From Candidatus Omnitrophota bacterium (GTDB lineage Bacteria; Omnitrophota; Gorgyraeia; Gygaellales; Profunditerraquicolaceae), in NCBI GenBank assembly GCA_041651035.1, contig JBAZKC010000003.1, positions 5,153-69,152 of the forward strand: DNA of 64,000 nt. The letters are read 5' to 3'. Shown here one piece after another: positions 289 through 33,131 of this stretch. Every line of letters begins with the position of its first letter. The first letter of the stretch is position 1. The position numbers and the translations under genes were made by a program. The notes below the pieces were generated by a model, which saw nothing but the letters and a program-made list of their open reading frames with translations, ran no database searches and was not told where the DNA came from.

Positions 289-2016
289 ATGATGACAAAA
301 AGTGATATGAAAAACAATAATTCCTATAAAGGATCGCTGAGCTTAGATTGGATTAATAAGGACTACTCGCTATATTATGAAATTGACGAAAAAAAAGGCA
401 GAGGTATTCGTCCGGTTTGGGTACCTAAAAATGATATTCGTGTTGCGGAACCGAGGATTTTAAACCTTACAAAAAGCTATGGTGATCTGTCAAGCGAGAA
501 TATGCTTATCAAGGGTGATAATCTTCTGGTTTTAAGAAGCCTCGTGGAGATGTTCAAGGGGAAAAAAGAGAAAGACAAAGTAAGATGTATCTATATCGAT
601 CCGCCATTCAATACTGGTCAGGCTTTCGAAAAATACGATGACAACCTGAGACATTCCGAATGGCTTGCCATGATGAGGGACAGGCTGGAGTTGTTATATA
701 AGTTGCTGAGGAAGGATGGGTCAATCTTCATTCATATTGATGACGAAGAACTGCATTATTTAAAGACAATCTGCGATGAAATCTTTGGTAGAGATAATTT
801 TGTGTCTACGATTTGCGTTCGCGATTCTCATCCAAGCGGCATGAAGACGGCCCACAAAGACAAAACAATAATCAAAACAAAGTCGTATATATTGGTTTAT
901 AAAATATCCGGAAAAACGAGATTTAATCCGCAATATAGATCTAAAGAAGCTTGGGACTCCCATTACAATTATTTTCTGGACCGCAAGAAGAAAAAACTCC
1001 ACAGGCTTCTTGATATTTTAATCCGGAATGGGTTTCTTAAAAAGAGGCAATCTTTGGAAGATTTGGATCTTAAGGATCCGAAATTCAGAAAATTTTATTT
1101 GGAAAACCGGGAAAATATAATACAGACAACAAAAGAATTGCCGCCGGAAGTCAAAAAAAAGAGCCTGGAGAGAAAAGGTGAGATAATAACATTCACCAAT
1201 AAAAAGGGTCGGCAGCTTTTTGCTTTTAATGGAAGGCGTTTGGCGAGTTTAAGTGAAAGTGTCAATAACGTTGGTTTTGGCAATCAGTTAAAAGAAGCAA
1301 TTTCTTTATTGGTGTGCGATTTTTGGGATGACATAGATTTTAACAATACGCAGAACGAAGGCGGGGTCAGATTCCCCGCATCTAAAAAACCAGAACAACT
1401 GGTTGCCAGAGTAATTTCTTTGGCCTCGGAAGAAAACGATGTGGTTTTAGATTCTTTCGCCGGATCCGGCACGACTCCGGCAGTTGCCCACAAACTGAAC
1501 AGACGGTGGATTTCCATAGAGATAGGCAAACATGCAGAGGATTTATGCATAACGCGATTGAAAAGGGTTATTTCCGGTAAAGACAATTCAGGCATATCCC
1601 AGCTGTGCGGATGGACAGGGGGCGGCGGTTTTCAATATTACAAATTAGGCAGAAGCGTTATTTACGATAACGATATGAACTGGGAGATGAAAGCGGAGGA
1701 AATGGCAGAAGCGGTTTTCCTGCACTTTCAGTATAAGATAGAACGATGTGATTGGTTAAAAGAAGAGAACATGTATTTAGGAAAACACCGGGATACGCCC
1801 TATCAATTTGCCATATGTTTTGCATCGCGGGAAATAAAAATATTTAAAGAAGAACTATACGAAAAGATTACAGATTTTCTTGCCAAAGAAAAGAGATTCA
1901 AACACCTAACCATCTTTACAAATATGCCCGTGGCCGTATCGCCGGAATCTATGGACGATCGCATTTCCATTGAGAAAATACCGGCTAAAATATTGCGTGA
2001 GTACAATCTAATATGA
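289..2016 (+). CDS. mod: Type III restriction-modification Mod subunit (N6-adenine/N4-cytosine DNA methyltransferase)
   Basis: DPPF motif (IYIDPPFNTG, motif IV) and FxGxG AdoMet motif (DSFAGSGTT); mod-then-res order with a 4-bp overlap onto the next gene. Confidence 0.8.
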   Translation: MMTKSDMKNNNSYKGSLSLDWINKDYSLYYEIDEKKGRGIRPVWVPKNDIRVAEPRILNLTKSYGDLSSENMLIKGDNLLVLRSLVEMFKGKKEKDKVRCIYIDPPFNTGQAFEKYDDNLRHSEWLAMMRDRLELLYKLLRKDGSIFIHIDDEELHYLKTICDEIFGRDNFVSTICVRDSHPSGMKTAHKDKTIIKTKSYILVYKISGKTRFNPQYRSKEAWDSHYNYFLDRKKKKLHRLLDILIRNGFLKKRQSLEDLDLKDPKFRKFYLENRENIIQTTKELPPEVKKKSLERKGEIITFTNKKGRQLFAFNGRRLASLSESVNNVGFGNQLKEAISLLVCDFWDDIDFNNTQNEGGVRFPASKKPEQLVARVISLASEENDVVLDSFAGSGTTPAVAHKLNRRWISIEIGKHAEDLCITRLKRVISGKDNSGISQLCGWTGGGGFQYYKLGRSVIYDNDMNWEMKAEEMAEAVFLHFQYKIERCDWLKEENMYLGKHRDTPYQFAICFASREIKIFKEELYEKITDFLAKEKRFKHLTIFTNMPVAVSPESMDDRISIEKIPAKILREYNLI

Positions 2017-4778
2017 AAAAGAACGATAAAAATACTTTTTATGATCTAGTGACGCATGATCCGCAGTACCAAATAGCGGTCGGATCGCATTCTCTTGAAA
2101 ATATCGAAAATTTCAAGGATATTCAGAGGTTATTAAAATATCCGCTGCGTCCATATCAGCTTGAAGCCCTTAGCGCATTTCAACTATTCTGGAAAGACGG
2201 TTTTGATAGCCGTAGTATTAAGCAGAAGGCAATAGAGACTATAACCGGGCACGGTGGTAACGTTTTAAATTGGCCAAAAATCGGGTTTGAAATGGCTACT
2301 GGTTCGGGTAAAACCCTGCTGATGGGGGCGATTATTTTATATCTTTGGCACAAAAATTATAAAGATTTTCTGATTTTAACCCCAAATACGATTCTATTTG
2401 ATAAAACTGTAGAAAATTTCACGCCAAGGGCGGTTAAGAGTATTTTTGGCGACGGGTGGAATTTAAAATACAATTTGATAACCGGAAATAGTTATCGGGA
2501 TAAAACGTGTCATTACAGAATTGATCGTGATATATCATTTTATGTTTTTAACATGCAAAAATTTTATGAAAAAGCTTCAAAAGGTAAAGACGATGAAGGC
2601 GAAGATACAATGAAGGGCATGCCTTATGTAAGGAGACCCTTGGAAGAGTCGCTTTGGAAAGATGAATCCGGGAAGCATACAATTTCATTCATGGAGTTTT
2701 TGAAACAAAGGAGGCCGGTGATTATTTCAGACGAAGCCCATCATTATCAACAGAAGACAACGAGAGAGGCCATTTTTGAGATGTTGCCTAGTGTAGTAGT
2801 GGAATTTACCGGGACTTCCGTTGAGAAGAATGCTTTAAGGGGTTTGGGTCAAGACAATCTGTATAAGTATTCGATGCAGCGATACATTGGCGAAGGATAC
2901 GGGAAAAGAATTTTTGCATTAGGTTGTGGTACCCCAGAGGTAAAAATTACTGACGCGGTAACGGAGAGCGATAAGCAGAAACTAATCTGGGGAATGATCG
3001 TTCATCTTCTTAAAAGAGAAGCCTTGAAAACCGTAGACGCCCCCCTCAAAAAAGCCATGATGCTGGTAAAGGCCAGATCGATACAGCATGCTGAAAACGT
3101 TGATAATTATTTGCGTAATTGGCCGGAAACCATATCAAAAGAGCTGGATGATGTTTTAGAGCAGGTTAATCGTGAGCAAACTGATATTGTAAGAATGCTT
3201 CGCAAGTATTTGCCCCACCAGAAGAAAGACCGTCAAAGATTGGTCAAGGATTTAACCGGGGTTGCCAAGTCGGTATTTACGATACACAGCGAAAACAAAA
3301 GCGAAGAAGAAGTATGGACTGATTACAAAACTCTGGATGAAAATAAGGCCGAGGTAGTCAATCAGGTCAGGGTCTTCACCGAAGGCGTTGATTACGACCA
3401 TTTCTATACCATTGTGGTTCTTGGGGATACTGTGGAAAATGCTGGACTTGCAGCTGCCCAACTTATCGGCAGAGGGCTCAGACTCTTTAAGGAAAAACGC
3501 GAATATGACATTTTGGATTGTGACATAAAGGAACAAAGCGAAATATTGCACGTGATATGCGAAAAAGGCAAGCGTTTTGACAAAATAGTTGAAGATATCC
3601 GGCAAAAACTCGATTTGGCCAAAGGGATCATTGAGATACCGGTTGAAGAAGAGGAGAAAACCAATAGCATAAAGGTAAAATTAATTGATGATTATAAACT
3701 TCCGGTTCTGAATATTAGGTCTGTTGCAACCGGTGTAACCTTTAAAGATGCGTTAAAAGACAAAAAATTAAGTATAGATCAATTTATTAAAGAAACGTGT
3801 GTAATCATTCGCGGAGCAAAAGTTTTGAAACCGGAAGTATTGGCGTCAATTGAAGAGGTTGAAGTAACAAGCGATAAAGTTGAATTGCATCAAGAAAAGC
3901 CTAAAACCACCAGACGTACGCTGACACTGGATGAAAAAGACATGGGAAGATGGGCCTGGAGGTTTATTGAAGAAACGGCACCTTTCATTGGAAATATCGA
4001 ATTTGAATCAATTCTAAATCGTATTAAAGAAATATTTAAAGCCGGCATAGAAGTTGATGCTGCCTATTCCCAAGACTATCGGAAGGCGCTAAGAGCCTTA
4101 GAGAAAAGTATAAAATCTTTTCACAGAGATCGTTCATACGAATTAATGTTTAAAAAGGAACTTAAGATTAGACAGACAAACGTAAAAGAACTATTTAAGG
4201 ATAGTGCGGTGACGATAAGAAAAAGAGAAGGATGGACGAACCTGATTCCTTCTTACCAGCCCATGTCATCACATCTGCAGCAGAAAGGTGTCGTAGTTGA
4301 AGGTTATAAATATTCAATACGGCCATATGTCAAGTTTGATTCTCCGCCAGAGAAATGGGTTGCTGATAAACTCGAATATTTATGCACCCTGGACAAAACC
4401 GGGAAAAGTTTTTGGATTAGAAACGAGCCGAAAACAGAATATCCCATAGAGGCCCGTCCGGCCCCATTTTATCCCGATTTCCTTGCGTATATAAAAGGTA
4501 AATGGGCAGTGATAGACGTTAAAGGTAAACATCTGGCCGAAACAAAACAAATCGATGAGCGGAAAAAGGTTCTTAAACTTCTGGAGAAAGAAGGTAAAAT
4601 TATAACCTATTTTCTCGTGGATAAGGTTATGGAGAAAAAAGGCTTTGAGGATCAGAAAATTCAAAGTTTGGACGATTTCTCCGGTTTTGATGAGTTACGT
4701 CATGCTGAGTTAGGAGATGAAGAATTTATAAACGGAGCATTGTCAGATCTATTTAAAAAGCGAAGCAAAAGAACTTAG
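2013..4778 (+). CDS. res: Type III restriction enzyme Res subunit (SF2 helicase motifs plus C-terminal PD-(D/E)xK-like nuclease)
   Basis: Walker A MATGSGKT, DEAH box (ISDEAHHY), C-terminal PDF…IDVKGK; start overlaps the mod stop. Confidence 0.8.
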   Translation: MKKNDKNTFYDLVTHDPQYQIAVGSHSLENIENFKDIQRLLKYPLRPYQLEALSAFQLFWKDGFDSRSIKQKAIETITGHGGNVLNWPKIGFEMATGSGKTLLMGAIILYLWHKNYKDFLILTPNTILFDKTVENFTPRAVKSIFGDGWNLKYNLITGNSYRDKTCHYRIDRDISFYVFNMQKFYEKASKGKDDEGEDTMKGMPYVRRPLEESLWKDESGKHTISFMEFLKQRRPVIISDEAHHYQQKTTREAIFEMLPSVVVEFTGTSVEKNALRGLGQDNLYKYSMQRYIGEGYGKRIFALGCGTPEVKITDAVTESDKQKLIWGMIVHLLKREALKTVDAPLKKAMMLVKARSIQHAENVDNYLRNWPETISKELDDVLEQVNREQTDIVRMLRKYLPHQKKDRQRLVKDLTGVAKSVFTIHSENKSEEEVWTDYKTLDENKAEVVNQVRVFTEGVDYDHFYTIVVLGDTVENAGLAAAQLIGRGLRLFKEKREYDILDCDIKEQSEILHVICEKGKRFDKIVEDIRQKLDLAKGIIEIPVEEEEKTNSIKVKLIDDYKLPVLNIRSVATGVTFKDALKDKKLSIDQFIKETCVIIRGAKVLKPEVLASIEEVEVTSDKVELHQEKPKTTRRTLTLDEKDMGRWAWRFIEETAPFIGNIEFESILNRIKEIFKAGIEVDAAYSQDYRKALRALEKSIKSFHRDRSYELMFKKELKIRQTNVKELFKDSAVTIRKREGWTNLIPSYQPMSSHLQQKGVVVEGYKYSIRPYVKFDSPPEKWVADKLEYLCTLDKTGKSFWIRNEPKTEYPIEARPAPFYPDFLAYIKGKWAVIDVKGKHLAETKQIDERKKVLKLLEKEGKIITYFLVDKVMEKKGFEDQKIQSLDDFSGFDELRHAELGDEEFINGALSDLFKKRSKRT

Positions 4779-5554: not shown

Positions 5555-6823
5555 ATGGAGATTAGAAAATTAAGCATAAATCAAATTAACCCCGTGGCAT
5601 ATAATCCGCGTAAGGATCTTAAGCCAGGGGACCCGGAATATGAAAAACTCAAAGTAAGCCTTTCAGAATTTGGCTACGTAGACCCCTTAATCTGGAACGA
5701 GGCCACAGGTAATCTTGTTGGTGGCCATCAGAGATTTAAGATACTTAAAGAGCAGGGCATTCAGGAAGTAGAAGTAAGCGTAGTCAATCTGCCTTTAGAG
5801 CGGGAAAAGGCCCTAAATTTAGCCTTAAATAAGATCCAGGGTGCCTGGGATAACGATAAGCTCGCGATCCTGCTGGATGAATTAGTAAAAATCCCTGATT
5901 TTGAGATTAGCTTATCGGGGTTCGATATCCCGGAAATATCCAAAATATTCGATAATTACCTAGAGCCAGCAGTAGGCGATTCAGTCGAAGATCCGCAAGC
6001 CATTATCGAGCCTGTAACCAAGCAGGGCGATTTAATCCTGCTTGGCCCGCACAGGATTCTCTGCGGCGATTCTTCAATCCCAGATGATGTGGCTAAGCTT
6101 ATAACGGATAATAAGGTAAGCCAAATTTTTAGCGACCCTCCCTACTGCGTTAATTATTCCGCTGAAAACCGGCCTGTCTCTATAGATATAAAAGTAAAGC
6201 CGAATGAGCGCTGGAGGAAGATTCTTAATGACAACCTTCCTCAAAAGGATTACGAGAAGTGGCTTAAACAGGTTTTCCAAAACATTAATCCTTATCTGGC
6301 GAAAGGGGCTGCATTCTATATCTTTAACGGACATAGACAGTTTGGGCCTATGCATCAGATGTTGCTTGAGCTAGGAATGCATGTCGCCTGCACAATCACT
6401 TGGGCAAAGGAGAGTTTTTCCCCGGGTTACGGTGACTACAACCAGCAAACCGAGTTTTGTCTATACGGCTGGAAAGAAGATAATGGCGCGCACAACTGGT
6501 ACGGTTCTGAGAATGAATCAACCTTATGGCAGATACACAGGGAACAATCCTGCGATCTGGAGCACCCGACTCAAAAACCACTTCTTCTGGCAGAGCGAGC
6601 GATAAAGAATAGCTCCAAAAGGGGCGATATCGTACTAGATATGTTCTTAGGCTCAGGAACAACGCTAATCGCTGCAGAAAGATTATCTAGGGTCTGTTAC
6701 GGCATGGAGCTAGATCCACGATACTGCGATGTAATGGTCAGGCGCTACATAAGTTTTGCCGGCGCGGATGGGGTGAGCGAAGAAATCAGAAATAAGTACT
6801 TGAGGACGCCGACAAATGCCTAA
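5555..6823 (+). CDS. ParB-like nuclease domain fused to an N6A/N4C DNA methyltransferase (orphan MTase, phage-type architecture)
   Basis: N-terminal ParB/Srx-like motif (GGHQRFKIL); C-terminal DPPY (IFSDPPYCVNY) and FxGxG (DMFLGSGTT) motifs. Confidence 0.75.
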   Translation: MEIRKLSINQINPVAYNPRKDLKPGDPEYEKLKVSLSEFGYVDPLIWNEATGNLVGGHQRFKILKEQGIQEVEVSVVNLPLEREKALNLALNKIQGAWDNDKLAILLDELVKIPDFEISLSGFDIPEISKIFDNYLEPAVGDSVEDPQAIIEPVTKQGDLILLGPHRILCGDSSIPDDVAKLITDNKVSQIFSDPPYCVNYSAENRPVSIDIKVKPNERWRKILNDNLPQKDYEKWLKQVFQNINPYLAKGAAFYIFNGHRQFGPMHQMLLELGMHVACTITWAKESFSPGYGDYNQQTEFCLYGWKEDNGAHNWYGSENESTLWQIHREQSCDLEHPTQKPLLLAERAIKNSSKRGDIVLDMFLGSGTTLIAAERLSRVCYGMELDPRYCDVMVRRYISFAGADGVSEEIRNKYLRTPTNA

Positions 6824-8748: not shown

Positions 8749-9039
8749 ATGAAACGCCAAGGAGATCTGTTGATAGTTAAGGTAAATAGTATCCCTGATG
8801 ATGCTGTCAGGCAGAAGAGCAGGATATTGGCAGAAGGCGAAACAACCGGACATGTGCATGAGCTTGAGAAAGGCGAGGTATATGAGAAAGAAGGAATATT
8901 GTATTTTAAGGTTTCAGATGGTGAGGTCTCAACGCTTAATCATCCGGAACATAAGGCAATTGAGTTTGAGCCAGGGGAATACAAGGTAATCAGGCAAAGA
9001 GAATATGAACCAAGAGGCTGGAGATATGTTAGAGATTGA
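8749..9039 (+). CDS. Hypothetical small protein (96 aa)
   Basis: ORF with RBS AAAGGAGG; no recognised motif. Confidence 0.4.
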   Translation: MKRQGDLLIVKVNSIPDDAVRQKSRILAEGETTGHVHELEKGEVYEKEGILYFKVSDGEVSTLNHPEHKAIEFEPGEYKVIRQREYEPRGWRYVRD

Positions 9040-9880
9040 TGAATATTCCTGGCTAAAAGGCACGTTAAAATATAAGCTTATCGGCGCGCCTGGAAGAAAC
9101 AGATCAGAAGCAATCGGGTATCACCCAAACGGCAACCCGAAATTCAGGTATTTCTTGGTGAATAGCGAACTAAATGGAGTCGGCAGGTTTTGGGATGAAG
9201 GAGGGCGTTTGTGTCTTGAGGAGAATTTTGTAAATGGCCAGGTGAATGGTATAAGAAGAGAATGGTATTCAAATGGCAATCTTGAATCAGAAGAATTTTA
9301 CAAGAGCGGATCAAGAAACGGAATTTCTAAATCATGGTATTTGGATGGGAGATTAAAAAGCCAATGCACATATTTAAATGACAGGCGTCACGGTTTAGCT
9401 TTGGAGTGGCATACAAACGGGCAATTAATTGAAAGAAAAAGCTATGAAAGCGGTTTAATGAACGGCGTTTGCATGAAATGGGATGAAAAAGGAGAATTGA
9501 AGGAAAAGAAGATTTATGTGCGAGGCGTAATTATCCCTCCTAAGATTCAAAAAATCATTGATTCAGGAAAACTGTCAGCACAGTATATTATCGCAATGCG
9601 CAATACCGCGTTAAGAAGAATTTGCCTTGAAGAGTTTGGTTATGAGAGATTTCTGCTTCAGGTTAACCACGAGGTTATTTCTAAAGATGATGATTGTGAA
9701 CTTGTAAGAATCGATTGGCATAAGCGCGAAGAATCAATTTTCTTGGTTAAAGTCAGGTGCCCTTCTACGGGTGTATTTTACACATTACGGGTACCACCAA
9801 GAATGAAGACAGTAAAACAGGCGATTGCTTGGACTTTTAATATGAAAGATTCAGAATACACCCCCCTGTCAGAAACTTAA
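9005..9880 (+). CDS. MORN-variant repeat protein (YwqK-antitoxin-like repeats) with an unknown C-terminal domain
   Basis: Repeated G-x-W/Y…NG…G motifs (EWYSNGNLESEEFYKSG, EWHTNGQLIERKSYESG, KWDEKGELKEKKIY). Confidence 0.55.
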   Translation: MNQEAGDMLEIDEYSWLKGTLKYKLIGAPGRNRSEAIGYHPNGNPKFRYFLVNSELNGVGRFWDEGGRLCLEENFVNGQVNGIRREWYSNGNLESEEFYKSGSRNGISKSWYLDGRLKSQCTYLNDRRHGLALEWHTNGQLIERKSYESGLMNGVCMKWDEKGELKEKKIYVRGVIIPPKIQKIIDSGKLSAQYIIAMRNTALRRICLEEFGYERFLLQVNHEVISKDDDCELVRIDWHKREESIFLVKVRCPSTGVFYTLRVPPRMKTVKQAIAWTFNMKDSEYTPLSET

Positions 9881-11016: not shown

Positions 11017-11027
11017 TTGCATAATTT

Positions 11028-12722
11028 TTGCACTCTCCGTGGTTTTACGGTAGAATGGTATCAATCATTAGAAGTATAAATTGTATGAATATCAATTGGT
11101 TAAAATATCGCAAGAACCTTCGCGGCCGAGACCCATTAGGTGTCCAGGCTATTAACATTCATTTATATAGTCTTCTTGTCCCTGGAATAACCAACGTTAC
11201 CGATCGCCTGCGCTACTATTCTTTTTTCCCATGGGTTCTCAAACTCTATAAAGACGAGAATATTAAATTAGATTTTGTACCATTTTTGAGACGCGCTGAA
11301 TTTTTATTTAGCGTTATCACAACTTATCACCATATTAATGAACCATCATGGTCTGGTCATATGGTTGGAACAATGGTAATGGGGCAGGCGACTAGTGAGC
11401 TAACCGTCAATAAAAAGATCGTTCTTTCGAAATATACAAGCCTAGAGGAAAGCAATCAGAGATATTTCAAAAATAGACTAGGTGGATTTGGGCAGTATTA
11501 TTTGGGTGTTTTAATTGCTAATGGGATACTAGATAGAAAAGGAAATCTTGAATTTGCGCTTTATCCTAGAGGCCTTGAGCTGGCAAATGCATTTGTTTCA
11601 GGAAATTCTAAAGATACTTTCATTACATGTGTTTTAAATGATAAAGTTACAGCGAAAGAGTTAGATATTATGAAAGACGATCTTTGCGCCTGCAATCTAA
11701 AGCGAAATAGTTCTGAGTATAAACTTTTATCAGAATTCCTCAAAGGACAAGATGACCCCTATGTACGTGAATCGACATATAAAAGACGCGATTCGCTTGC
11801 TCTCATGTTTTTACTTCTGGAGCAAACAGAAAAGACAACCGATTATTGGGAATTATTAAACGCTTTATACTATGGAGTAAGCGATAATAATAAGAAGATT
11901 AAAATCCCAGCCGGTCTAACCGAAACAGCCACTCTTTGGAAATACTACGTACAGCATGAATTTTTCTCTATGGCACTCTTATCATTATTTGTAAGCGCGC
12001 AACATCTTCTTGATGATAATGGCCTAGTAAATTCTGAAATTGGAGCAAGGTTATGGGAACGCTATTTATTAAACTGTAACCCGGATGAATTACAGGCAAG
12101 CCTTAAGCCATGTCTAATAAAACTAAAAAAGAATCCTACTTTATCAGAATTCATAGGATATTTAGATTCAGTATATGCCATTGATAAGGCCTGGGATAAG
12201 GATGCGCTTTCAGAAATTAGTATTAGTAAATTCTTGGATAACAAACAGTTTCCCCCAGATTCACTTTTAGTTGGAGGGCTGGTGTTATTATCTTTAGTAA
12301 TTCGTGCTATTAAGGATGAGCAAGGTGAACCTCAGGGTATAAATTTTAAAGGAATTTTTAGCCAATACCCTATAAATCTTAGTAAATTAAGAAAAGACTA
12401 TAATGATCGATGGCACAAAATGAAAATTTTCGAAGTAGTTCATGAATTAGTCATGGAGTATATATTAAATAGACATATAGAGGTAGCTGTTCGAAAGCTC
12501 TATACAGAGGGACTTGCGACCTTCCGCTTCTTAAGAGAAGACAATATATATAGACATAGTGAGATTGAATATGATTATGTTGGGAATACCAGCCCGCGTT
12601 TAAGGGAAAGCCTTCAGATGATGGCAGACCTTAAAATTGTGAATGAAGCAAAAGAGGGGTTTTCTATTATTGATAAAGATATTGGTACAAAGTATTTTCA
12701 CGAGGTAATTAGTGGAGCTTGA
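11028..12722 (+). CDS. Hypothetical protein (564 aa), first gene of the candidate defence cluster
   Basis: Long ORF with no recognisable motif; alternative start at 11085 downstream of a TTGCAC-17-TAGAAT promoter-like element (11038-11066); 3' end overlaps the next gene by 11 bp. Confidence 0.5.
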   Translation: MHSPWFYGRMVSIIRSINCMNINWLKYRKNLRGRDPLGVQAINIHLYSLLVPGITNVTDRLRYYSFFPWVLKLYKDENIKLDFVPFLRRAEFLFSVITTYHHINEPSWSGHMVGTMVMGQATSELTVNKKIVLSKYTSLEESNQRYFKNRLGGFGQYYLGVLIANGILDRKGNLEFALYPRGLELANAFVSGNSKDTFITCVLNDKVTAKELDIMKDDLCACNLKRNSSEYKLLSEFLKGQDDPYVRESTYKRRDSLALMFLLLEQTEKTTDYWELLNALYYGVSDNNKKIKIPAGLTETATLWKYYVQHEFFSMALLSLFVSAQHLLDDNGLVNSEIGARLWERYLLNCNPDELQASLKPCLIKLKKNPTLSEFIGYLDSVYAIDKAWDKDALSEISISKFLDNKQFPPDSLLVGGLVLLSLVIRAIKDEQGEPQGINFKGIFSQYPINLSKLRKDYNDRWHKMKIFEVVHELVMEYILNRHIEVAVRKLYTEGLATFRFLREDNIYRHSEIEYDYVGNTSPRLRESLQMMADLKIVNEAKEGFSIIDKDIGTKYFHEVISGA

Positions 12723-15156
12723 TCTAATACAGCGAATTAAGGACTTTAAACCAACAGAAGCATATGTTTTAACCTTCTCTATTGACCTTCATTATTATGA
12801 AGGATTTTTTCTACCTCTGATTCAACAGCTTGGATGTACAAAGAATATAGTTATTGCAGATAGTAACAAAATCAGCGAAAATTTAGAAACCAATTCCTCA
12901 TACATTAACAAACTTGGCAGAGAGTATCTATTAATACCAATTCATTCCGACTTTGCTTTCCATCCCAAAATCTATTTGTTTAAAAAAGTGCTTAAGGATA
13001 CTACTTCTTTGCTATGTTTTGTAGGAAGTGGCAATCTCACGTATCCTGGCTTAAATACCAATCAAGAAATATTCGTTGAAGAGATATGGGAAAAGACTGG
13101 GCGTCCACCTCAGTTTTGGAACGAAGTATCAGAATATTTCAATGTAATTCTAGGATCATGCCGCGGAGAAGCGGCAAAACTGGTAAAGAAATGGTTATCG
13201 TACAGTTATCCTCAGCAATTTGAGAAAGAAAATGAGAATCTATCGATTCTTATAAGATATCCTGCTGAAACTAATATCTTTGAGCAGTTTAAGGCAAGAC
13301 TTAAGGGAAAACCTGTAAAAAATATATTTTTAACTGCTCCATTTTATGATGAAGATTTAAGCGCAATAAAAAAAGTTGTTTCGGAATGTAAGCCCAAGAA
13401 GATAGAGCTTCTTATTCAGCCTGGTAAGACAAGCGTAACTACTAAGAAATTCATCTCATTTGTTAAGGCAAATCCAAACATTACTTTAAAAGCATTTGAG
13501 CCAAAGAATTATCTAGGAAGATACTTACACGCAAAAATGATTGTAGCCACTACCGGTGCAGAAGAGCATGTTTTATCCGGAAGCGCGAACTTGTCTGATG
13601 TGGCGCTTCTTGGAAGGCCAAAAGCGTTTAATTATGAAGCTTGTGTATATACGCGTGTAGATTTGAAAAACAGTGTACTTGAACGACTTGGTATAGAAAA
13701 AATGTCAAAGCCCATATCTTTAGATAAGATGCCTGAAACGGTTGTCGAAATAGCATTTAAAGAATCGGAAGGCCCTAAATTTAAGTTAATTTCTTCCGAG
13801 TGCTATGGCGGCAAATGCTATTTCACGGTTATTGGTGCCGAGAAACATTCAACGTTGGATGCAGAACTGCGCTATAGCGATAACAAAAGAGGAACGATCG
13901 TATTAACACAGAAAAAAGATTCAAAAGATACTTTTATTTGTGAAGGAAGAGCGCTGTTCTCTGCTATCGCAGCCAGAATATTGGCAGAGAAAGATCTGTA
14001 TACCAAATGGACGCCAATATTATTTGTAGCCGAAATTGAGAGGAGATCAAGAAGGTACTTTGAAAAAGCTGAAAAACTAAAGGATAGTTTCCTGCGTGCT
14101 GCAAATGAGTTAAACAGGGATAATTATCTTGATCTAATCTTTGATAGCTTAATAGAAGATTCTTTAAAAGCGCTTGAAGCAAAGGTTAGTTCTTCCAGGG
14201 TATCACTTAAGGAAGATGATGCAATGAAGGGCGTAGCAACGATAAATATTGAAACTGAAACGCCAATCATAGAGAAGACTGGTGAGTCAACCGCTGGGCT
14301 GGGGTTTAATGAAGGCTTAGACTATGTAATTTCAGTATTGCGTGAAAGACGGCAAGCCGGCTCTATGGAAGAAGACGTAACTAATACCGAACAGGACAAG
14401 GAGTTTGAAGAATACGATCAAAAGCTTCAAGAGTCAACAGAGGCTCAATTGCAGGAAGTAGATATTCTTTATGCAATATCGAGGCGTTTGAAATCAAGGA
14501 GAAGGGTTTTTATCAAGAATGAATCAATTAAAGATCCTGTCGTAAGAAGCTCTTATTTTTCACTGATAGCATTGCCGCACATGCCAAAGTTACACCGGTA
14601 TTATATTGGGGATGACAAGGAAAGGCATTCTTGCGTTAGCGATGATGATTGGAATGAATTTGTTATTGAATCATGCAATTCATTGGGTTTGCTTACGTTT
14701 AAAACACCTTCTAAAGATATTTGGCCTGATTTAGGAGTAGATATATTAAAAAAAGATATTTTTGAAGTTTGCATTGTTTCAATTTTGTATTCTTTTGTTA
14801 CAGTTTATCCAATATTAAAATACAGAAGCAATGCGTTAGGAGATGAAGGGTTTAATAGTTGTTTGCAGCTCAACCGCTTTACCAATCTTTTGGCAGCAAT
14901 GCTACAAAATTATCTTAAAATTGAAGGATCAAGCCCAGATATTCTTAAAGACAAGTTGAATGAAATTCGCGAACATTTCCCATGCGGTTGGTTATTTGTG
15001 GAAAAAAGCCTAGTAGAAGTTTTTGATAATGTATTAGATGTTATTAATCATAATTTTAAGAACCCAAAAGTATGGGAATTCGGAGACCTAAGTTATATTG
15101 CTGGTAAAGGGTTTCTATTACGGGCTAAAGGAAAAAGCATCTTACTCTGGGAATAA
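12712..15156 (+). CDS. PLD-family (HKD-like) nuclease-domain protein with a large unknown C-terminal region (814 aa)
   Basis: Two HxK…GSxN motifs: FHPKIYLFKK…VGSGNLT (aa 84-108) and LHAKMIVAT…SGSANLS (aa 273-293); the Asp of the canonical HxKx4D is replaced. Confidence 0.6.
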   Translation: MELDLIQRIKDFKPTEAYVLTFSIDLHYYEGFFLPLIQQLGCTKNIVIADSNKISENLETNSSYINKLGREYLLIPIHSDFAFHPKIYLFKKVLKDTTSLLCFVGSGNLTYPGLNTNQEIFVEEIWEKTGRPPQFWNEVSEYFNVILGSCRGEAAKLVKKWLSYSYPQQFEKENENLSILIRYPAETNIFEQFKARLKGKPVKNIFLTAPFYDEDLSAIKKVVSECKPKKIELLIQPGKTSVTTKKFISFVKANPNITLKAFEPKNYLGRYLHAKMIVATTGAEEHVLSGSANLSDVALLGRPKAFNYEACVYTRVDLKNSVLERLGIEKMSKPISLDKMPETVVEIAFKESEGPKFKLISSECYGGKCYFTVIGAEKHSTLDAELRYSDNKRGTIVLTQKKDSKDTFICEGRALFSAIAARILAEKDLYTKWTPILFVAEIERRSRRYFEKAEKLKDSFLRAANELNRDNYLDLIFDSLIEDSLKALEAKVSSSRVSLKEDDAMKGVATINIETETPIIEKTGESTAGLGFNEGLDYVISVLRERRQAGSMEEDVTNTEQDKEFEEYDQKLQESTEAQLQEVDILYAISRRLKSRRRVFIKNESIKDPVVRSSYFSLIALPHMPKLHRYYIGDDKERHSCVSDDDWNEFVIESCNSLGLLTFKTPSKDIWPDLGVDILKKDIFEVCIVSILYSFVTVYPILKYRSNALGDEGFNSCLQLNRFTNLLAAMLQNYLKIEGSSPDILKDKLNEIREHFPCGWLFVEKSLVEVFDNVLDVINHNFKNPKVWEFGDLSYIAGKGFLLRAKGKSILLWE

Positions 15157-15273
15157 GAGAAACGTTTTACGGTTTAGCATATACTTTGATAAAAAGAAGA
15201 AGACCGTTAAGTGTCCAAAGCGTGGTGAAGAGGTAAAGATTAGTTGGTATACAAAGATAGGAGGGGTCTTGTT

Positions 15274-16497
15274 ATGGAGTTTAATTGTCCTTTATGCAAA
15301 CAGCCAGTTACTGAAGAGCTATATGGTAAGATCACAGGTATTTGGAAAGAACAAAAAGTAGCCGAAAAGAAATTTAAGCAAAAAGAAAAAGAGCTTATTA
15401 AGCAACAAAAAGCGGATAAAAAACAATTATTAGATGAACGCAGAAAATTAAAAGCTGAGCAAAAAGTAGTAATTGAACAGAAGATCGCTGAAAAAACAAA
15501 GAAACATTCTTTAGAATTAGAGAAGATTCGGTCAGAAAAAGATAAAATTAAAGAGCAGGCAGATAAAAAGATATTGGCTGCTGTCAGGGCTGCCGAAATG
15601 AAAACTAGGAAAGAAATCAATAAGGATCTTAAGAGCAAAATAGATGAATCGGTTACGAAGCAAGTTGCAAAATCAACAGCCAAGGTTCAAAAAGATTTGC
15701 TACGGAAAGATCGAACAATTGATGCAACAAGAAAACAAATGTCGACCCTGCAAGAACAAAATTCAAAACAGCAGCAGCGCATAACTAATTTGGAAACCCA
15801 GCTTAAGAAAGAGACGACTCCGCAAATAGAGGGGTTGCTGTATGAGGATAATTTACTTGAAGCCTTGAAAAAAGAATTCCCGGAAGATAAATTTGAACAT
15901 CCCGGTAAGGGTGGCGATATTATTCAATTTACAATCCATAATCAAAAACAATGCGGAATAATTGTTTATGAGTGCAAAAAAGTTGGCCAATGGCAAATAG
16001 CTCACGCTGAACAGGCAGCTCAAGCTAAATTACAAAGAAAAGCCGATTTTGCTATTTTAGTTACAAATGCGTCAAAGAAAGGCGGAGGAGGATTCTTTTT
16101 AGAAAAAGGAGTTGTTGTGGTTCATCCTGGAGGAGCTTTAGCAATCGCAAGTATCCTTAGAGAGCAAATCGTAAAGATTGCCCAGATGAAGTTAACTCAG
16201 GCTCAGAGAGAAGAAGCTATTGAAAAAACTTTTGAATATTTGCGCGGCCCTGAATTCAAAAACTCATTAGATATTGTTATAAGAAAAACAATAGAAATGT
16301 ACGAGGAGTTAAAAAAGGAATGCCAGGATCATGTTAAGCTATGGAAGAAAAGGTACGATACATTAAAGATTGTCCATTCTAATTCGGTTCAGGTACAGAC
16401 AAAAACGGTAGCTTTAATTTCTGGTAAATCTGAGACAATCCAGCAGGAAGTAGAATCGCATCAATTTCCTGCTTTGCCCGATTTGACTACTCTTTAA
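15274..16497 (+). CDS. Zn-ribbon plus long coiled-coil protein with a C-terminal PD-(D/E)xK-like segment (DUF2130-like)
   Basis: CPLCKQPV at the N-terminus, ~180 aa K/E/Q-rich heptad region, C-terminal GDIIQF…IVYECKKV (D…ExK); RBS AGGAGGGG 7 nt before the ATG at 15274 (the ORF track begins at 15244). Confidence 0.5.
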   Translation: MEFNCPLCKQPVTEELYGKITGIWKEQKVAEKKFKQKEKELIKQQKADKKQLLDERRKLKAEQKVVIEQKIAEKTKKHSLELEKIRSEKDKIKEQADKKILAAVRAAEMKTRKEINKDLKSKIDESVTKQVAKSTAKVQKDLLRKDRTIDATRKQMSTLQEQNSKQQQRITNLETQLKKETTPQIEGLLYEDNLLEALKKEFPEDKFEHPGKGGDIIQFTIHNQKQCGIIVYECKKVGQWQIAHAEQAAQAKLQRKADFAILVTNASKKGGGGFFLEKGVVVVHPGGALAIASILREQIVKIAQMKLTQAQREEAIEKTFEYLRGPEFKNSLDIVIRKTIEMYEELKKECQDHVKLWKKRYDTLKIVHSNSVQVQTKTVALISGKSETIQQEVESHQFPALPDLTTL

Positions 16498-16504
16498 GGA
16501 TTAA

Positions 16505-17428
16505 ATGAAAGCAAACATAACAAACCAAACTCACGACAGACCTTCATTTTACAAGTACGTCTCAAGTGAAGTAGCAAAGAGTGTTCTTACAAATAAAACT
16601 TTGAAATGGAGTTCCCCTTTGCTGTTTGATGATCCATTTGACGTGACTCGCGTATTAGCCGCGGATATTAAAGCTTCTGAAATACAAGAATGTCTCATTG
16701 ATAGTATAATAGACTTAATTAAGAATAATACAGAGGTGCGCTCGGAGTTTAATCCTAAAGTATGTCTTATGATAGAGACCTTAAGGAAATCCGGAAGAAA
16801 TGATGTAAAAGAAGAAATTATTCGTTCGCTTTATGATTTGAAGAATGAGCCAATTATGGAGTCTTCTGCCTTAGGCGAATTAAGAAAAATGTGGGAAGAT
16901 ATGGTTTTAATTTCTCGTATTCTATGTCTCAGCGCTAGAAATAACATTGAACTGATGTGGGATCGTTATGCGGATAAATATAGGGGTGTTGTTCTTGAGT
17001 TTTCTTGTTTGAAGGAGCTTGATAGCCCGTGGCTTATATTTGAACCAGTTCAGTACAGGCCTTCTTTTTTGGATAAGGTTGGTTGGGGAAGAGTGCTAAC
17101 TTTGAATCAAGATGCGGCTACAAAATACATTTTTCATGAAAGCTGTTATACTAAAACATCGGATTGGTCATATCAGGAGGAATGGAGGATAGTAAGTTTC
17201 AAGAGAACAGGAGAAAATGGAGAATATTCGTACTATAAGTTTAATCCAAAAGAATTATCCGCCATTTATCTCGGCCCAGAGATTGTTGCAGAAGACAGGG
17301 AATGTATACTGTCATTACTAAATAATGAGCTATCGCATGTGAAGGTGTACTCCGGGAGTATAACGGTCGGATGCCGTATTGAATTTAGAGAATTACCAAG
17401 TGTTCGCGTAGAGAGATCAGTTGGTTAA
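16505..17428 (+). CDS. DUF2971-like protein
   Basis: N-terminal FYKY…LKWSSPLLFDDPFDV pattern characteristic of DUF2971; starts 8 bp after the preceding gene. Confidence 0.45.
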   Translation: MKANITNQTHDRPSFYKYVSSEVAKSVLTNKTLKWSSPLLFDDPFDVTRVLAADIKASEIQECLIDSIIDLIKNNTEVRSEFNPKVCLMIETLRKSGRNDVKEEIIRSLYDLKNEPIMESSALGELRKMWEDMVLISRILCLSARNNIELMWDRYADKYRGVVLEFSCLKELDSPWLIFEPVQYRPSFLDKVGWGRVLTLNQDAATKYIFHESCYTKTSDWSYQEEWRIVSFKRTGENGEYSYYKFNPKELSAIYLGPEIVAEDRECILSLLNNELSHVKVYSGSITVGCRIEFRELPSVRVERSVG

Positions 17429-17453
17429 TCTTACCCCTTAAAACTGTGCCACT

Positions 17454-17537
17454 TCCAATTGCGTGTACAGAGAGTTTTTCTGACATACCATATTTCTACG
17501 CCGCCTCTTAGGGATTACCTCTTATGATATACGATAA
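17454..17537 (+). repeat. R1 repeat copy 1 (TTCCAA…TACAGAGAGTnTTTCTG…TATTTCT…TAGGG.TACCTC…GATAA)
   Basis: ~80% identical to 21017-21110; located after the DUF2971 gene. Confidence 0.6.
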
Positions 17538-17766
17538 GAAAATTTAAAAAAGGATTTACAATGGGGAAGATGAGGTATAGAATAAATCCATCATTAAGAG
17601 GTGGTAAATGAGGTTTGAATAGCAAAATTTGAAGGCAATTCCTAAAAATAGGGGGGTTGTCTTTTTTAATTGACAGTTCTAATTTTTGAAATATAGAAAC
17701 ATTGCTAATTTATAATCATTTGATTTTTTTAAATCACCCTGAATTTAACGTGGGAGAGGCAATAAT

Positions 17767-30692: not shown

Positions 30693-30920
30693 GAGCAGTT
30701 CTCCTAGTTTTCCCTTGACAATGCCCTTTTTGGTGGTATAGTTAGTATTGACAATTTGGCAGAGCGTGACTGGTGGTCAACATGGGAAACCATGAGGAAG
30801 CGCTTCTAACAGATAGCTAAAACCGTACACCTGGGTTTTTTAAACCAGGTGTTTTTATTTTATAAGCACCCCGGCTTATTGGATTGCCGGGTGCGCCCTT
30901 TCTGGGCAGGGGGTGGTAGC

Positions 30921-33131
30921 ATGTTTACAAGAGGAAGATGGGACAAGACGATAGACGTAAGGGACTTTATCAACAGGAATTATACTCCTTATGACGGTGA
31001 CGGGGCATTTTTAAGCGGGCCTACTCTAAGGACAAAGGCTCTTTGGGAAAAATGCCTGAAACTTTTTGAGCAGGAGAGAAAAAAGGGCGGCGTATACGAT
31101 ATAGATACGCAAACCGTATCTACCATAACCAGCCATAAGGCCGGTTATATAGATAAAAAGCTGGAGATCATTAAAGGGCTTCAGACAGACCAGCCGTTAA
31201 AAAGGGCTATTAAGCCTTTAGGCGGTATCCGGCTGGTGGAAGAGGCCTGCCAGGATTATGGCTATAAACTCAGCCCGCGTGTAAAAGAAATTTACACTAA
31301 ATACCGCACGACCCACAATGACGCGGTGTTTGACGCCTATACCGCGGATATATTAAAAGCCAGGCATACCGGGTTAATCACCGGTTTGCCGGATAATTAT
31401 TCCCGCGGCAGAATAATAGGCGATTTTAGAAGAGTAGCGCTTTATGGCGTAAAAAAGCTTATCGCCGCCAAGAATAACGATAAAAAGACGCTTGAAGATC
31501 ATTCTACCCCGGAAGCTATAAGATTAAGAGGGGAATTGGCAGAGCAGATCAAGGCGCTTGAAGATATTATAGCGTTAGGCAATATGTACGGGTTTGACCT
31601 TTCCCGACCGGCGGAAAACGCCAGGGAAGCGGTGCAGTGGACGTATCTTGCTTATTTATCATCCATAAAAGAGCAGGACGGTGCTGCCATGAGCTTAGGC
31701 AGTGTGAGCAATTTCTTTGATATATACATAGAAAATGACTTAAAGCGCGGGCTTATTACAGAAGAGCAGGCCCAGGAATTGATAGATGATTTCGTAATAA
31801 AACTACGGTTAGTAAGGCACCTGCGCACAAAATCATATTCGGAAATATTCGCCGGGGACCCGGTATGGATCACGGAGAGTATCGGCGGCGTAGGGATAGA
31901 CGGAAGGCACAAGATCACAAAAAGCTCTTACAGGTTTTTACAGACACTCTTTAATTTGGGGGCAGCGCCTGAACCGAACCTTACTGTGCTTTGGTCGTTT
32001 CGCCTGCCTGAGTCTTTCAAGGAATTTTGCAGCCAGGTATCCATAAAGACCAGCTCCATACAATATGAAAATGACGACATAATGCGCCTTATCGGCGGAG
32101 ATGATTACAGTATATCCTGCTGCGTGTCTTTGCTTAAAAATGGCAGTGAAATGCAGTATTTCGGGGCGCGCTGCAATCTGCCTAAGGTGCTGCTGTACGC
32201 TTTAAATGAAGGCAGGGATGAAATAACCGGTGAAAAAGTCGTCCCCGATATCACGCCTATCCAGTCTAATCCTTTAAACCATAGTGAAGTAAAAGAAAAA
32301 TTCCAGCAGGTCTTAAAGTGGACAGTCCGCACTTATGTGGAGGCCCTTAATATTATCCATTCCAGCCACGATACATACTATTATGAAAGGGCGCAGATGG
32401 CGTTATTGGATACCGCGCTCACCCGCTATATGGCTTTTGGTATTGCCGGGCTTTCAGTGGCCGCTGATTCTTTAAGCGCCATACGCTACGCTAAGGTAAG
32501 GGCTGTCAGGAACAAAAAGAACCTGACTACTTCCTTTAAGGTTGAAGGGGATTTTCCGAAATTCGGCAATGACGATGACCGCGTTGACGGCAGGGCGGTT
32601 GACCTGGTGAGTTCTTTTCTGGCGGAACTAAAGAAACATAAGCTTTACCGCGATTCAGTGCCGGCAGTATCCATACTTACCATAACTTCAAATGTGATGT
32701 ACGGAAAGAAAACAGGCGCTACTCCTGATGGAAGGGCTAAGGGTGTGCCTTTTGCCCCGGGCGCTAATCCCATGCACGGAAGGGATGAGAACGGGATCAT
32801 CGCTTCGCTTAATTCCGTAGCCGCTATTCCCTATACTGAATGCCGCGACGGGATATCCAATACTTTTTCCGCGATCCCTCAGGCGTTGGGCAGCAACCAG
32901 GAAAGCAGGATCGCGAATTTAAAAGGCCTGCTGGATGGTTATTTCCTGAAGGGCGCACAGCATTTAAACGTTAATGTCATAGACAAAAATACCTTAAGAG
33001 ACGCCATCAGGCATCCGCATAAGTATCCGCAGCTTACTATCAGGGTATCCGGTTACGCGGTGCATTTTAATAAATTATCCGCTGAACAGCAAAAGGAAGT
33101 TTTAGCAAGGACGTTCCATGAAAGTATGTAA
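30921..33131 (+). CDS. pflB: Formate C-acetyltransferase (pyruvate formate-lyase)
   Basis: N-terminus [35 protein letters not shown] matches the canonical PFL start; glycine-radical motif RVSGYAVHF near the C-terminus; true start taken at 30921 after GGGGGTGG. Confidence 0.9.

Follow-up and report, generated by a model that had tools for sequence, protein, structure and literature searches.

A conserved, helicase-free gene pair of apparent Azaca kinship in a defense island of a Candidatus Omnitrophota bacterium

Azaca, which Millman et al. reportedly introduced in 2022, is built from three proteins: ZacA, which carries DUF6361, the phospholipase D (PLD) nuclease ZacB, and the superfamily 2 helicase ZacC. 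Cleavage by BmAzaca in vitro needs ZacA, ZacB and ZacC as well as the Walker A motif of ZacC, BmAzaca prefers T4 DNA, possibly because of its glucosyl-hydroxymethylcytosine (glucosyl-hmC), and PLD enzymes act via a phosphohistidine intermediate (bioRxiv 10.1101/2025.07.10.664194). Here we describe a locus in a Candidatus Omnitrophota genome (contig JBAZKC010000003.1) that invites comparison with Azaca. It occupies positions 11028-17428 of the window, by which we mean the whole 64,000-nucleotide (nt) stretch that was analyzed and whose numbering is used throughout, and comprises four co-directional open reading frames (ORFs) on the + strand, genes 1-4. We consider it probable, if well short of certain, that this locus is part of a defense island carrying three independent modules: a pair formed by genes 1 and 2, which would constitute a new, helicase-less, Azaca-like two-component DNA nuclease; gene 3, a DUF2130 protein; and gene 4, a DUF2971 protein. 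What looks new, judging from sequence comparison, is the unnamed, helicase-free pair of the Azaca kind; genes 3 and 4 appear to fall into families that are already catalogued.

Genes 1 and 2 are a conserved unit, strictly linked across many bacterial phyla. Scanning GTDB with one genome per species (185,579 species genomes) yielded 178 gene 1 loci and places the pair in at least 178 species genomes; 80 of these loci were analyzed. In all 80, a gene 2 homolog, a PLD protein of ~850 amino acids (aa), lies directly downstream of the gene 1 homolog; it was detected by blastp in 77 loci and by tblastn in the remaining 3, which sit at contig ends. The 80 loci cover Omnitrophota, Gamma-, Beta- and Alphaproteobacteria, Myxococcota, Acidobacteriota, Desulfobacterota, Gemmatimonadota, Planctomycetota, Fibrobacterota and Actinomycetota, roughly ten phyla in all. 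The pair is translationally coupled, and its genes overlap by 4-14 nt at 59 of 77 junctions measured with a start-picking heuristic. Seven distinct metagenome loci (L001-L005, L094 and L095) also carry it, and every locus inspected among close relatives has a ~545-aa gene 1 homolog directly upstream of gene 2 with the same short overlap. Two RefSeq plasmids have the same arrangement (550/846 aa and 553/844 aa, confirmed by sequence on the gene 1 side only), and both genes are annotated as hypothetical in these two loci; neither Pfam nor NCBIfam nor PADLOC 2.0 has a name for the pair. On a distant branch (L007, 2305-6296) the order is reversed, the PLD gene preceding a gene-1-like partner that it overlaps by 4 bp, and the PLD protein additionally matches PADLOC PDC-M27B (E 1.5e-11) and PbeA.

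Gene 2 homologs split into two frames were seen at L040 (11622-13887) and L057 (11607-14157), which could reflect a frameshift, a pseudogene or an assembly error.

The sequence-only reading of this locus had taken all four genes for a single nucleic-acid-targeting defense system and had named, beforehand, a lack of co-occurrence across genomes among the observations that would refute that proposal. Its attraction is plain, since the genes are co-directional and tightly packed, with no convincing terminator found between any of genes 1-4. Co-occurrence was followed in the 80 genome loci, which had been fetched through gene 1, together with eight metagenome loci carrying the pair; all ORFs of these loci were searched with a hidden Markov model (HMM) of the gene 3 family and, by phmmer, with the gene 4 protein. 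Neither gene proved to be linked to the pair: the gene 1/gene 2 arrangement holds in 80 of 80 loci, but a DUF2130 homolog occurs in none of the 80 and in 1 of all 88, and a DUF2971 homolog in 1 of the 80 and 1 of the 88. The sole DUF2130 case, L094, has the gene in a different position, 1.4 kb upstream of the pair and next to a DUF8426 gene with which it is paired; the sole DUF2971 case, L082, has the gene 195 bp downstream. Because genes 3 and 4 are unlinked to the pair in the loci searched, a four-gene system is unsupported.

Other contexts point the same way. Seven close relatives of the pair were compared, and in six of them unrelated genes lie downstream; what follows the pair varies between ARPP-1, an uncharacterized gene and then Gabija, uncharacterized genes and then DUF4379, DUF6933, or nothing. 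The idea that a third conserved gene follows the pair was considered and rejected, as the genes of 219 and 218 aa at that place in L002 and L003 show no relationship to one another. Homologs of gene 3 that are 88%, 69% and 55% identical to it occur singly, in unrelated settings (one by a Shedu-like gene, one among TPR genes, one between groEL and a major facilitator superfamily transporter), and none of the gene 3 homolog loci has a DUF2971 neighbor, so that genes 3 and 4 were also rejected as a conserved pair of their own. Gene 4, finally, matches PADLOC PDC-S31 over nearly its full length, and PDC-S31 is a single-gene candidate by definition; Aristaios, which belongs to the same Pfam family, DUF2971, and is likened to gene 4 by that membership, works alone as a single-gene protein of 316 aa with an ADP-ribosyltransferase fold and an abortive-infection anti-phage phenotype (PMC11381338). 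The co-occurrence data largely refute the idea of a four-gene system, which we now regard as very improbable. That genes are tightly packed in a defense island does not show that they work as a unit.

A PDC-S31/DUF2971 gene directly downstream of the pair (E 3.6e-42) was observed in Paraburkholderia metrosideri (L082, 14382-15224), which makes two such adjacencies, the window included, among about 89 pair-bearing loci searched; this probably reflects clustering within defense islands.

The gene 2 protein carries the catalytic signature of the pair. It matches PLDc_2 with 37.1 bits (cutoff 27) in two stretches and, more weakly, RE_NgoFVII, and its two PLD-type motifs, H84-x-K86...G105-S-G-N108 and H273-x-K275...G290-S-A-N293, lack an Asp at the canonical position, just as had been read from the letters. 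Across 33 homologs, these motif residues, along with D213, N307 and E309, show either no variation or at least 90% conservation. An AlphaFold2 (AF2) model (predicted local distance difference test, pLDDT, 82.7) places residues ~1-340 in a two-lobed PLD fold, followed by a beta domain and then a helical region without a nucleoside triphosphatase (NTPase) motif; the beta domain and helical C-terminal region gave no significant structural match. Two HxK...GSxN motifs, a two-lobed alpha/beta fold and a single active site put the protein in the PLD/HKD superfamily, to which it adds a conserved C-terminal part of its own, ~470 aa long. At the family level, ZacB is the top PADLOC match in 10 of 11 gene 2 homologs and second to DrmC in the eleventh, with E values down to ~1e-16, and gene 2 aligns with ZacB mainly within profile positions ~99-385 of 586; by sequence, it qualifies as a PLD-family nuclease of the ZacB type found in Azaca. 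The close and distant clades of gene 2 align to each other with 100% probability (E 3.6e-42, 638 columns). Close full-length homologs are rare, nine having been found in a search of 5.8 billion proteins.

Gene 1, which had been put down as lacking any recognizable motif, carries a weak and reproducible N-terminal motif of the ZacA/DUF6361 type, G-x-D-P-L-G...P-G-I-T-N-V-T-x-R-x-R-Y-Y-S-F. The protein scores 16.7 bits against Pfam DUF6361 (cutoff 25), over the N-terminal 60-85 residues only, and E 1.6e-4 against PADLOC ZacA, again through its N-terminal part only (profile positions ~26-111 of 396). Among 48 members of the gene 1 family, 39 match ZacA, the only PADLOC family that is matched, with a best E of 7.4e-8 and always via this motif; 11 match DUF6361, none of them above the Pfam cutoff. 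The relation to ZacA/DUF6361 would accordingly be described as remote homology of one motif and not as family membership, and NCBIfam (June 2026) holds no model for gene 1. Its AF2 model (pLDDT 90; predicted template modeling score, pTM, 0.90) indicates an all-alpha protein of several winged-helix modules that is probably DNA-binding. A Foldseek search with the model found no match in the PDB; the model has been likened to type IIS recognition domains, with modest scores. By hhalign, gene 1 aligns with distant partner proteins with probabilities of 99.4, 97.8 and 96.3%. Invariant residues of gene 1 are D16, N37, T39, R41, R69, R126, Y127, Q137, Y139, H464, K471, R505 and D515. The family is much larger than the close gene 2 clade: a word-index search returned 255 matches, and an exhaustive phmmer search gave 1034 cluster representatives with E <= 1e-3, of which 535 reached E <= 1e-10; at 50% identity the family has more than 1000 clusters.

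One family member, P0219, comes from a eukaryotic transcriptome set (eukprot) and is probably bacterial contamination.

How closely does the pair resemble Azaca? Both set a ZacA-like protein beside a ZacB-like PLD nuclease, and the pair lies in defense islands. They differ in that Azaca has the ZacC helicase, whereas the pair operon has no helicase or NTPase: none of genes 1-4 contains a Walker A motif, which bears out the earlier statement that no helicase or ATPase is encoded among them; no ZacC match was found among 19 island proteins scanned with PADLOC; and no helicase or NTPase is conserved beside the pair in the 80 loci. Gene 1 is also ~150 aa longer than the 396 positions of the ZacA model. 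Since the operon has no helicase, none is conserved nearby, and the ZacA match is partial, we do not file the pair under Azaca; by sequence, it is best described as a putative helicase-less relative.

Other PLD systems stand further off. Enzymes such as BfiI, R.NgoAVII/NgoFVII and SauUSI share with gene 2 the weak RE_NgoFVII match and the need for a separate DNA-recognition element, and PLD enzymes of the BfiI/Nuc type are metal-independent. The PLD restriction enzymes, however, have one HKD motif per chain and dimerize, whereas gene 2 has two motifs per chain, like Tdp1 and PLD3/4. They also carry a fused B3-like recognition domain, in place of which the pair presumably has a separate multi-winged-helix protein; SauUSI has in addition a fused helicase, and the pair is without a linked cognate methyltransferase. 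DrmC of DISARM, DpdK of Dpd and PbeA of Pbe resemble gene 2 through weak matches to the PLD domain: PADLOC DrmC is matched at E 3e-8, NCBIfam DrmC, the sole NCBIfam match, at 17.9 bits against a cutoff of 133, far below threshold, and DpdK and PbeA are weakly matched in relatives. No DrmA, DrmB, DrmD, methylase, dpd or pbe gene accompanies the pair in the operon or in related loci. Of DISARM only this weak DrmC-type similarity was found. The first reading had compared the locus with DISARM and Mokosh; Azaca, the nearest known PLD system, had been overlooked.

Several findings weigh against the view of the pair as a self-contained, Azaca-like nuclease within a stretch of independent modules. 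(i) BmAzaca cleavage in vitro requires ZacC, which the pair lacks, so that a helicase-free pair might act in another way or call on a factor in trans. (ii) The pair is preceded, at a distance of 27 bp, by the gene for a 1740-aa double helicase in four related Burkholderiales loci. (iii) The likeness of gene 1 to ZacA/DUF6361 spans ~60-85 N-terminal residues and stays below the Pfam cutoff in 48 of 48 family members. (iv) The fold of gene 2 is best matched by the repair phosphodiesterase Tdp1, which leaves the endonuclease activity of gene 2 uncertain. (v) The DUF2130 gene of L094 and the DUF2971 gene of L082 leave some room for a loose, lineage-specific association of these families with the pair.

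The first two points are the core of a rival account in which the pair is an accessory nuclease module that depends on a motor or partner in trans, such as the translocase of a neighboring type I or type III restriction-modification (R-M) system or a distant helicase, and would thus be an incomplete or split Azaca-type system. Besides the in vitro requirement for ZacC and the fused DEAD+UvrD helicase directly upstream in four loci, this account can appeal to the type I R-M subunits that lie within five genes of the pair (R, M and S in 15, 11 and 8 of the 80 loci, respectively) and to the type III Res helicase 6 kb upstream in the window. Yet no neighboring family of any kind, helicase and R-M families included, exceeds 15 of the 80 loci, so most pairs have no candidate partner within 10 kb; neighbors are often on the opposite strand; and genes 1 and 2 carry, relative to the ZacA and ZacB models, extra conserved regions that could replace the contribution of a helicase. 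We judge dependence on a motor in trans to be unlikely.

The upstream gene itself (L056, 1109-6331; also L064, L071 and L078) encodes a fusion of DEAD/Helicase_C (DpdF-like) and UvrD (GajB-like) parts, and such loci may represent a helicase-containing variant of the pair system.

The resemblance to Tdp1 raises the different prospect that the pair serves DNA repair or the maintenance of mobile elements, either by Tdp1-like removal of protein-DNA or 3' adducts under the direction of a DNA-binding guide or as an addiction module of a plasmid or island. Its presence on 13 of 72,556 plasmids would suit such a role. The closest sequence family of gene 2 is nevertheless ZacB, a nuclease by experiment, and the pair is patchily scattered across phyla (178 loci in 185,579 species genomes) beside R-M, Druantia, Hma, Dsr1, Gabija and Iet genes. 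Eight large pair-adjacent proteins were scanned with PADLOC, and among them were HmaC, DruE, Dsr1, IetA, two type I restriction endonucleases and the DpdF/GajB-like double helicase; Gabija lies near the pair in L002; and further neighbors include Eco57I-type large methylases (8 loci), WYL regulators, HNH and PIN proteins, and AAA_15/21 ATPases. This patchy, island-borne pattern is typical of defense genes, and because distribution and neighbors both have that character, we favor defense over repair and hold a role in repair or maintenance to be quite unlikely. A phage origin of the pair was rejected, as a search of 50,697 phage records gave no match and IMG/VR only a single partial one.

Returning to the pair as a helicase-free defense nuclease, we infer complex formation, DNA as the substrate, the role of gene 1 and an anti-phage function, and posit that they could be joined as follows. 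The gene 1 and gene 2 proteins would form a complex in which the multi-winged-helix gene 1 protein would bind DNA and provide target recognition or licensing. By analogy with Azaca, for which such a cue has been proposed on T4 DNA, gene 1 may sense some property of foreign DNA, for instance hypermodified bases. Gene 2 would then cut DNA via a phosphohistidine intermediate, using H84/K86/N108 and H273/K275/N293 and requiring neither metal ions nor ATP, and no helicase would take part, unlike in Azaca. Tentatively, and with the odds somewhat against so specific a proposal, the pair may be a widespread two-component immune nuclease in which ZacA-like recognition of possibly hypermodified DNA licenses a Tdp1-like PLD cut without ATP or a helicase.

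The other two modules are easier to place. Gene 3 gives a full-length match to Pfam DUF2130 with 86.3 bits (cutoff 26.7) and has features first read from it, namely CPLC (aa 5-8), a charged helical region in which K/R/E/D/Q make up 55% of aa 26-200, and a D...ExK segment (D215...E233-C-K235). It resembles DUF2130/COG4487 in both the full-length match and the D...ExK; the family, which is without known function, was assigned to the PD-(D/E)XK group by Steczkiewicz et al. 2012 (PMC3424549). A weak LmuB match falls in the charged helical region and was set aside as coiled-coil composition. Gene 3 would thus be a stand-alone DUF2130 PD-(D/E)xK protein with a predicted nuclease fold. The family is far more abundant than the close clade of the pair, and a defense role for it is only suggested by occasional island locations (L009, by a Shedu-like gene; L094; and the window). 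Behind the DUF2130 gene of two unrelated loci (L011, 8001-9838; L094, 242-2334) comes a gene for a DUF8426 protein of ~190 aa. These DUF8426 proteins share 39% identity, and DUF2130 and DUF8426 may form a two-gene unit of their own. No DUF8426 partner is present in the window.

Gene 4 was recognized early as a DUF2971 protein, and the assignment stands with 30.1 bits (cutoff 22) and FDDPF at aa 41-45; the PDC-S31 match extends over aa 14-283 of 307. DUF2971 has been described as a DarT-like ADP-ribosyltransferase family (PMC12522546), and gene 4 would on this ground be a stand-alone DUF2971/PDC-S31 protein predicted to be an ADP-ribosyltransferase. A literature search found nothing under the names PDC-M27 or PDC-S31.

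The finer layout of the locus called for several adjustments. The four ORFs are present as first read, as is the 11-bp overlap between genes 1 and 2 (GTG start at 12712, TGA stop at 12720-12722), with GAGG 6 nt before the GTG of gene 2. The gaps further downstream, given at first as 88 and 8 bp, come to 87 bp before gene 3 if its longest ORF is used or 117 bp with the start at ATG 15274, and to 7 bp between genes 3 and 4; the ATG at 15274, which lies behind AGGAGG and gives 407 aa, is most likely the true start of gene 3. For gene 1, homolog alignment places the start at ATG 11085 (MNINWLKYRKN...), shortening the protein from the 564 aa reported to 545 aa. The promoter-like element TTGCAC-17-TAGAAT exists as described, ten positions upstream of the 11038-11066 given for it (Table 1), and falls inside the longest gene 1 ORF, upstream of ATG 11085. 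A consensus scan returned the nearly identical register TTTGCA-18-TAGAAT (11027-11056, 9 of 12 matches), and the region shows no enrichment of promoter-like sites (41, with 34.9 +/- 5.7 expected from shuffles).

Table 1. Coordinates of genes and other features in the 64,000-nt window
Feature	Position	Strand	Basis or remark
Type III R-M-like pair	Mod 289-2016, Res 2013-4778	+	MTase_III E 1.7e-99, REase_III E 1.4e-14
ParB-N-terminal methyltransferase	5555-6823		MTase_II E 4e-114; same GC-poor island
MORN_2 + DUF6745 protein	9005-9880		
Promoter-like element TTGCAC-17-TAGAAT	11028-11056	+	Read from sequence; just upstream of the real gene 1 start
Gene 1, partner protein of the pair, 545 aa	11085-12722	+	ZacA/DUF6361-like N-terminal motif; predicted multi-winged-helix fold
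Gene 2, putative single-chain, two-lobed PLD/HKD-family nuclease, 814 aa	12712-15156	+	
Gene 3, DUF2130 protein, 407 aa	15274-16497	+	DUF2130 E 2.8e-24; stand-alone gene outside the pair
Gene 4, DUF2971/PADLOC PDC-S31, 307 aa	16505-17428	+	PDC-S31 E 2.9e-31
Gene 5, STAND/AAA NTPase-PRTase-CE fusion, 1063 aa	17767-20958	+	PRTase-CE E 1.5e-55, AAA_22 1.4e-11
ZMP/ZTP riboswitch RF01750	30756-30843	+	41.4 bits (gathering score 39); directly upstream of ORF 30849-33131

The locus is embedded in a stretch whose GC content is 0.33-0.40 over most of positions 1-23000, compared with about 0.45 beyond. This low-GC stretch is a defense island, and the R-M pair, PDC-S31 and STAND-PRTase genes that it holds confirm the original impression of defense-related accessory DNA. 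Gene 5, downstream of the locus, is a separate module behind a 338-bp spacer (17429-17766) that contains a promoter-like site (17555-17583) and a terminator-like hairpin (17631-17664). Its product matches the PADLOC retron-type PRTase_III-A (E 3.1e-37) and has a Walker A motif, GQKRVGKT, at aa 421; no reverse transcriptase was seen among the genes examined. The MORN_2 + DUF6745 protein recurs at L009 (13112-13972), on an Omnitrophota-like contig with a close DUF2130 homolog, which suggests a common pool of island genes. A tRNA search of the window was negative, and the only Rfam family found in it, RF01750, lies far outside the locus.

If the pair does defend its hosts, it would be a compact, two-gene and apparently ATP-independent PLD nuclease system, distributed over many phyla and some plasmids. 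Because Azaca needs its helicase in vitro and the pair has none, the pair offers a natural comparison in which the roles of ZacC and of ZacA/DUF6361 become directly testable. Should the proposed reading be true, the pair would represent an Azaca-type system that manages without the motor on which Azaca depends in vitro.

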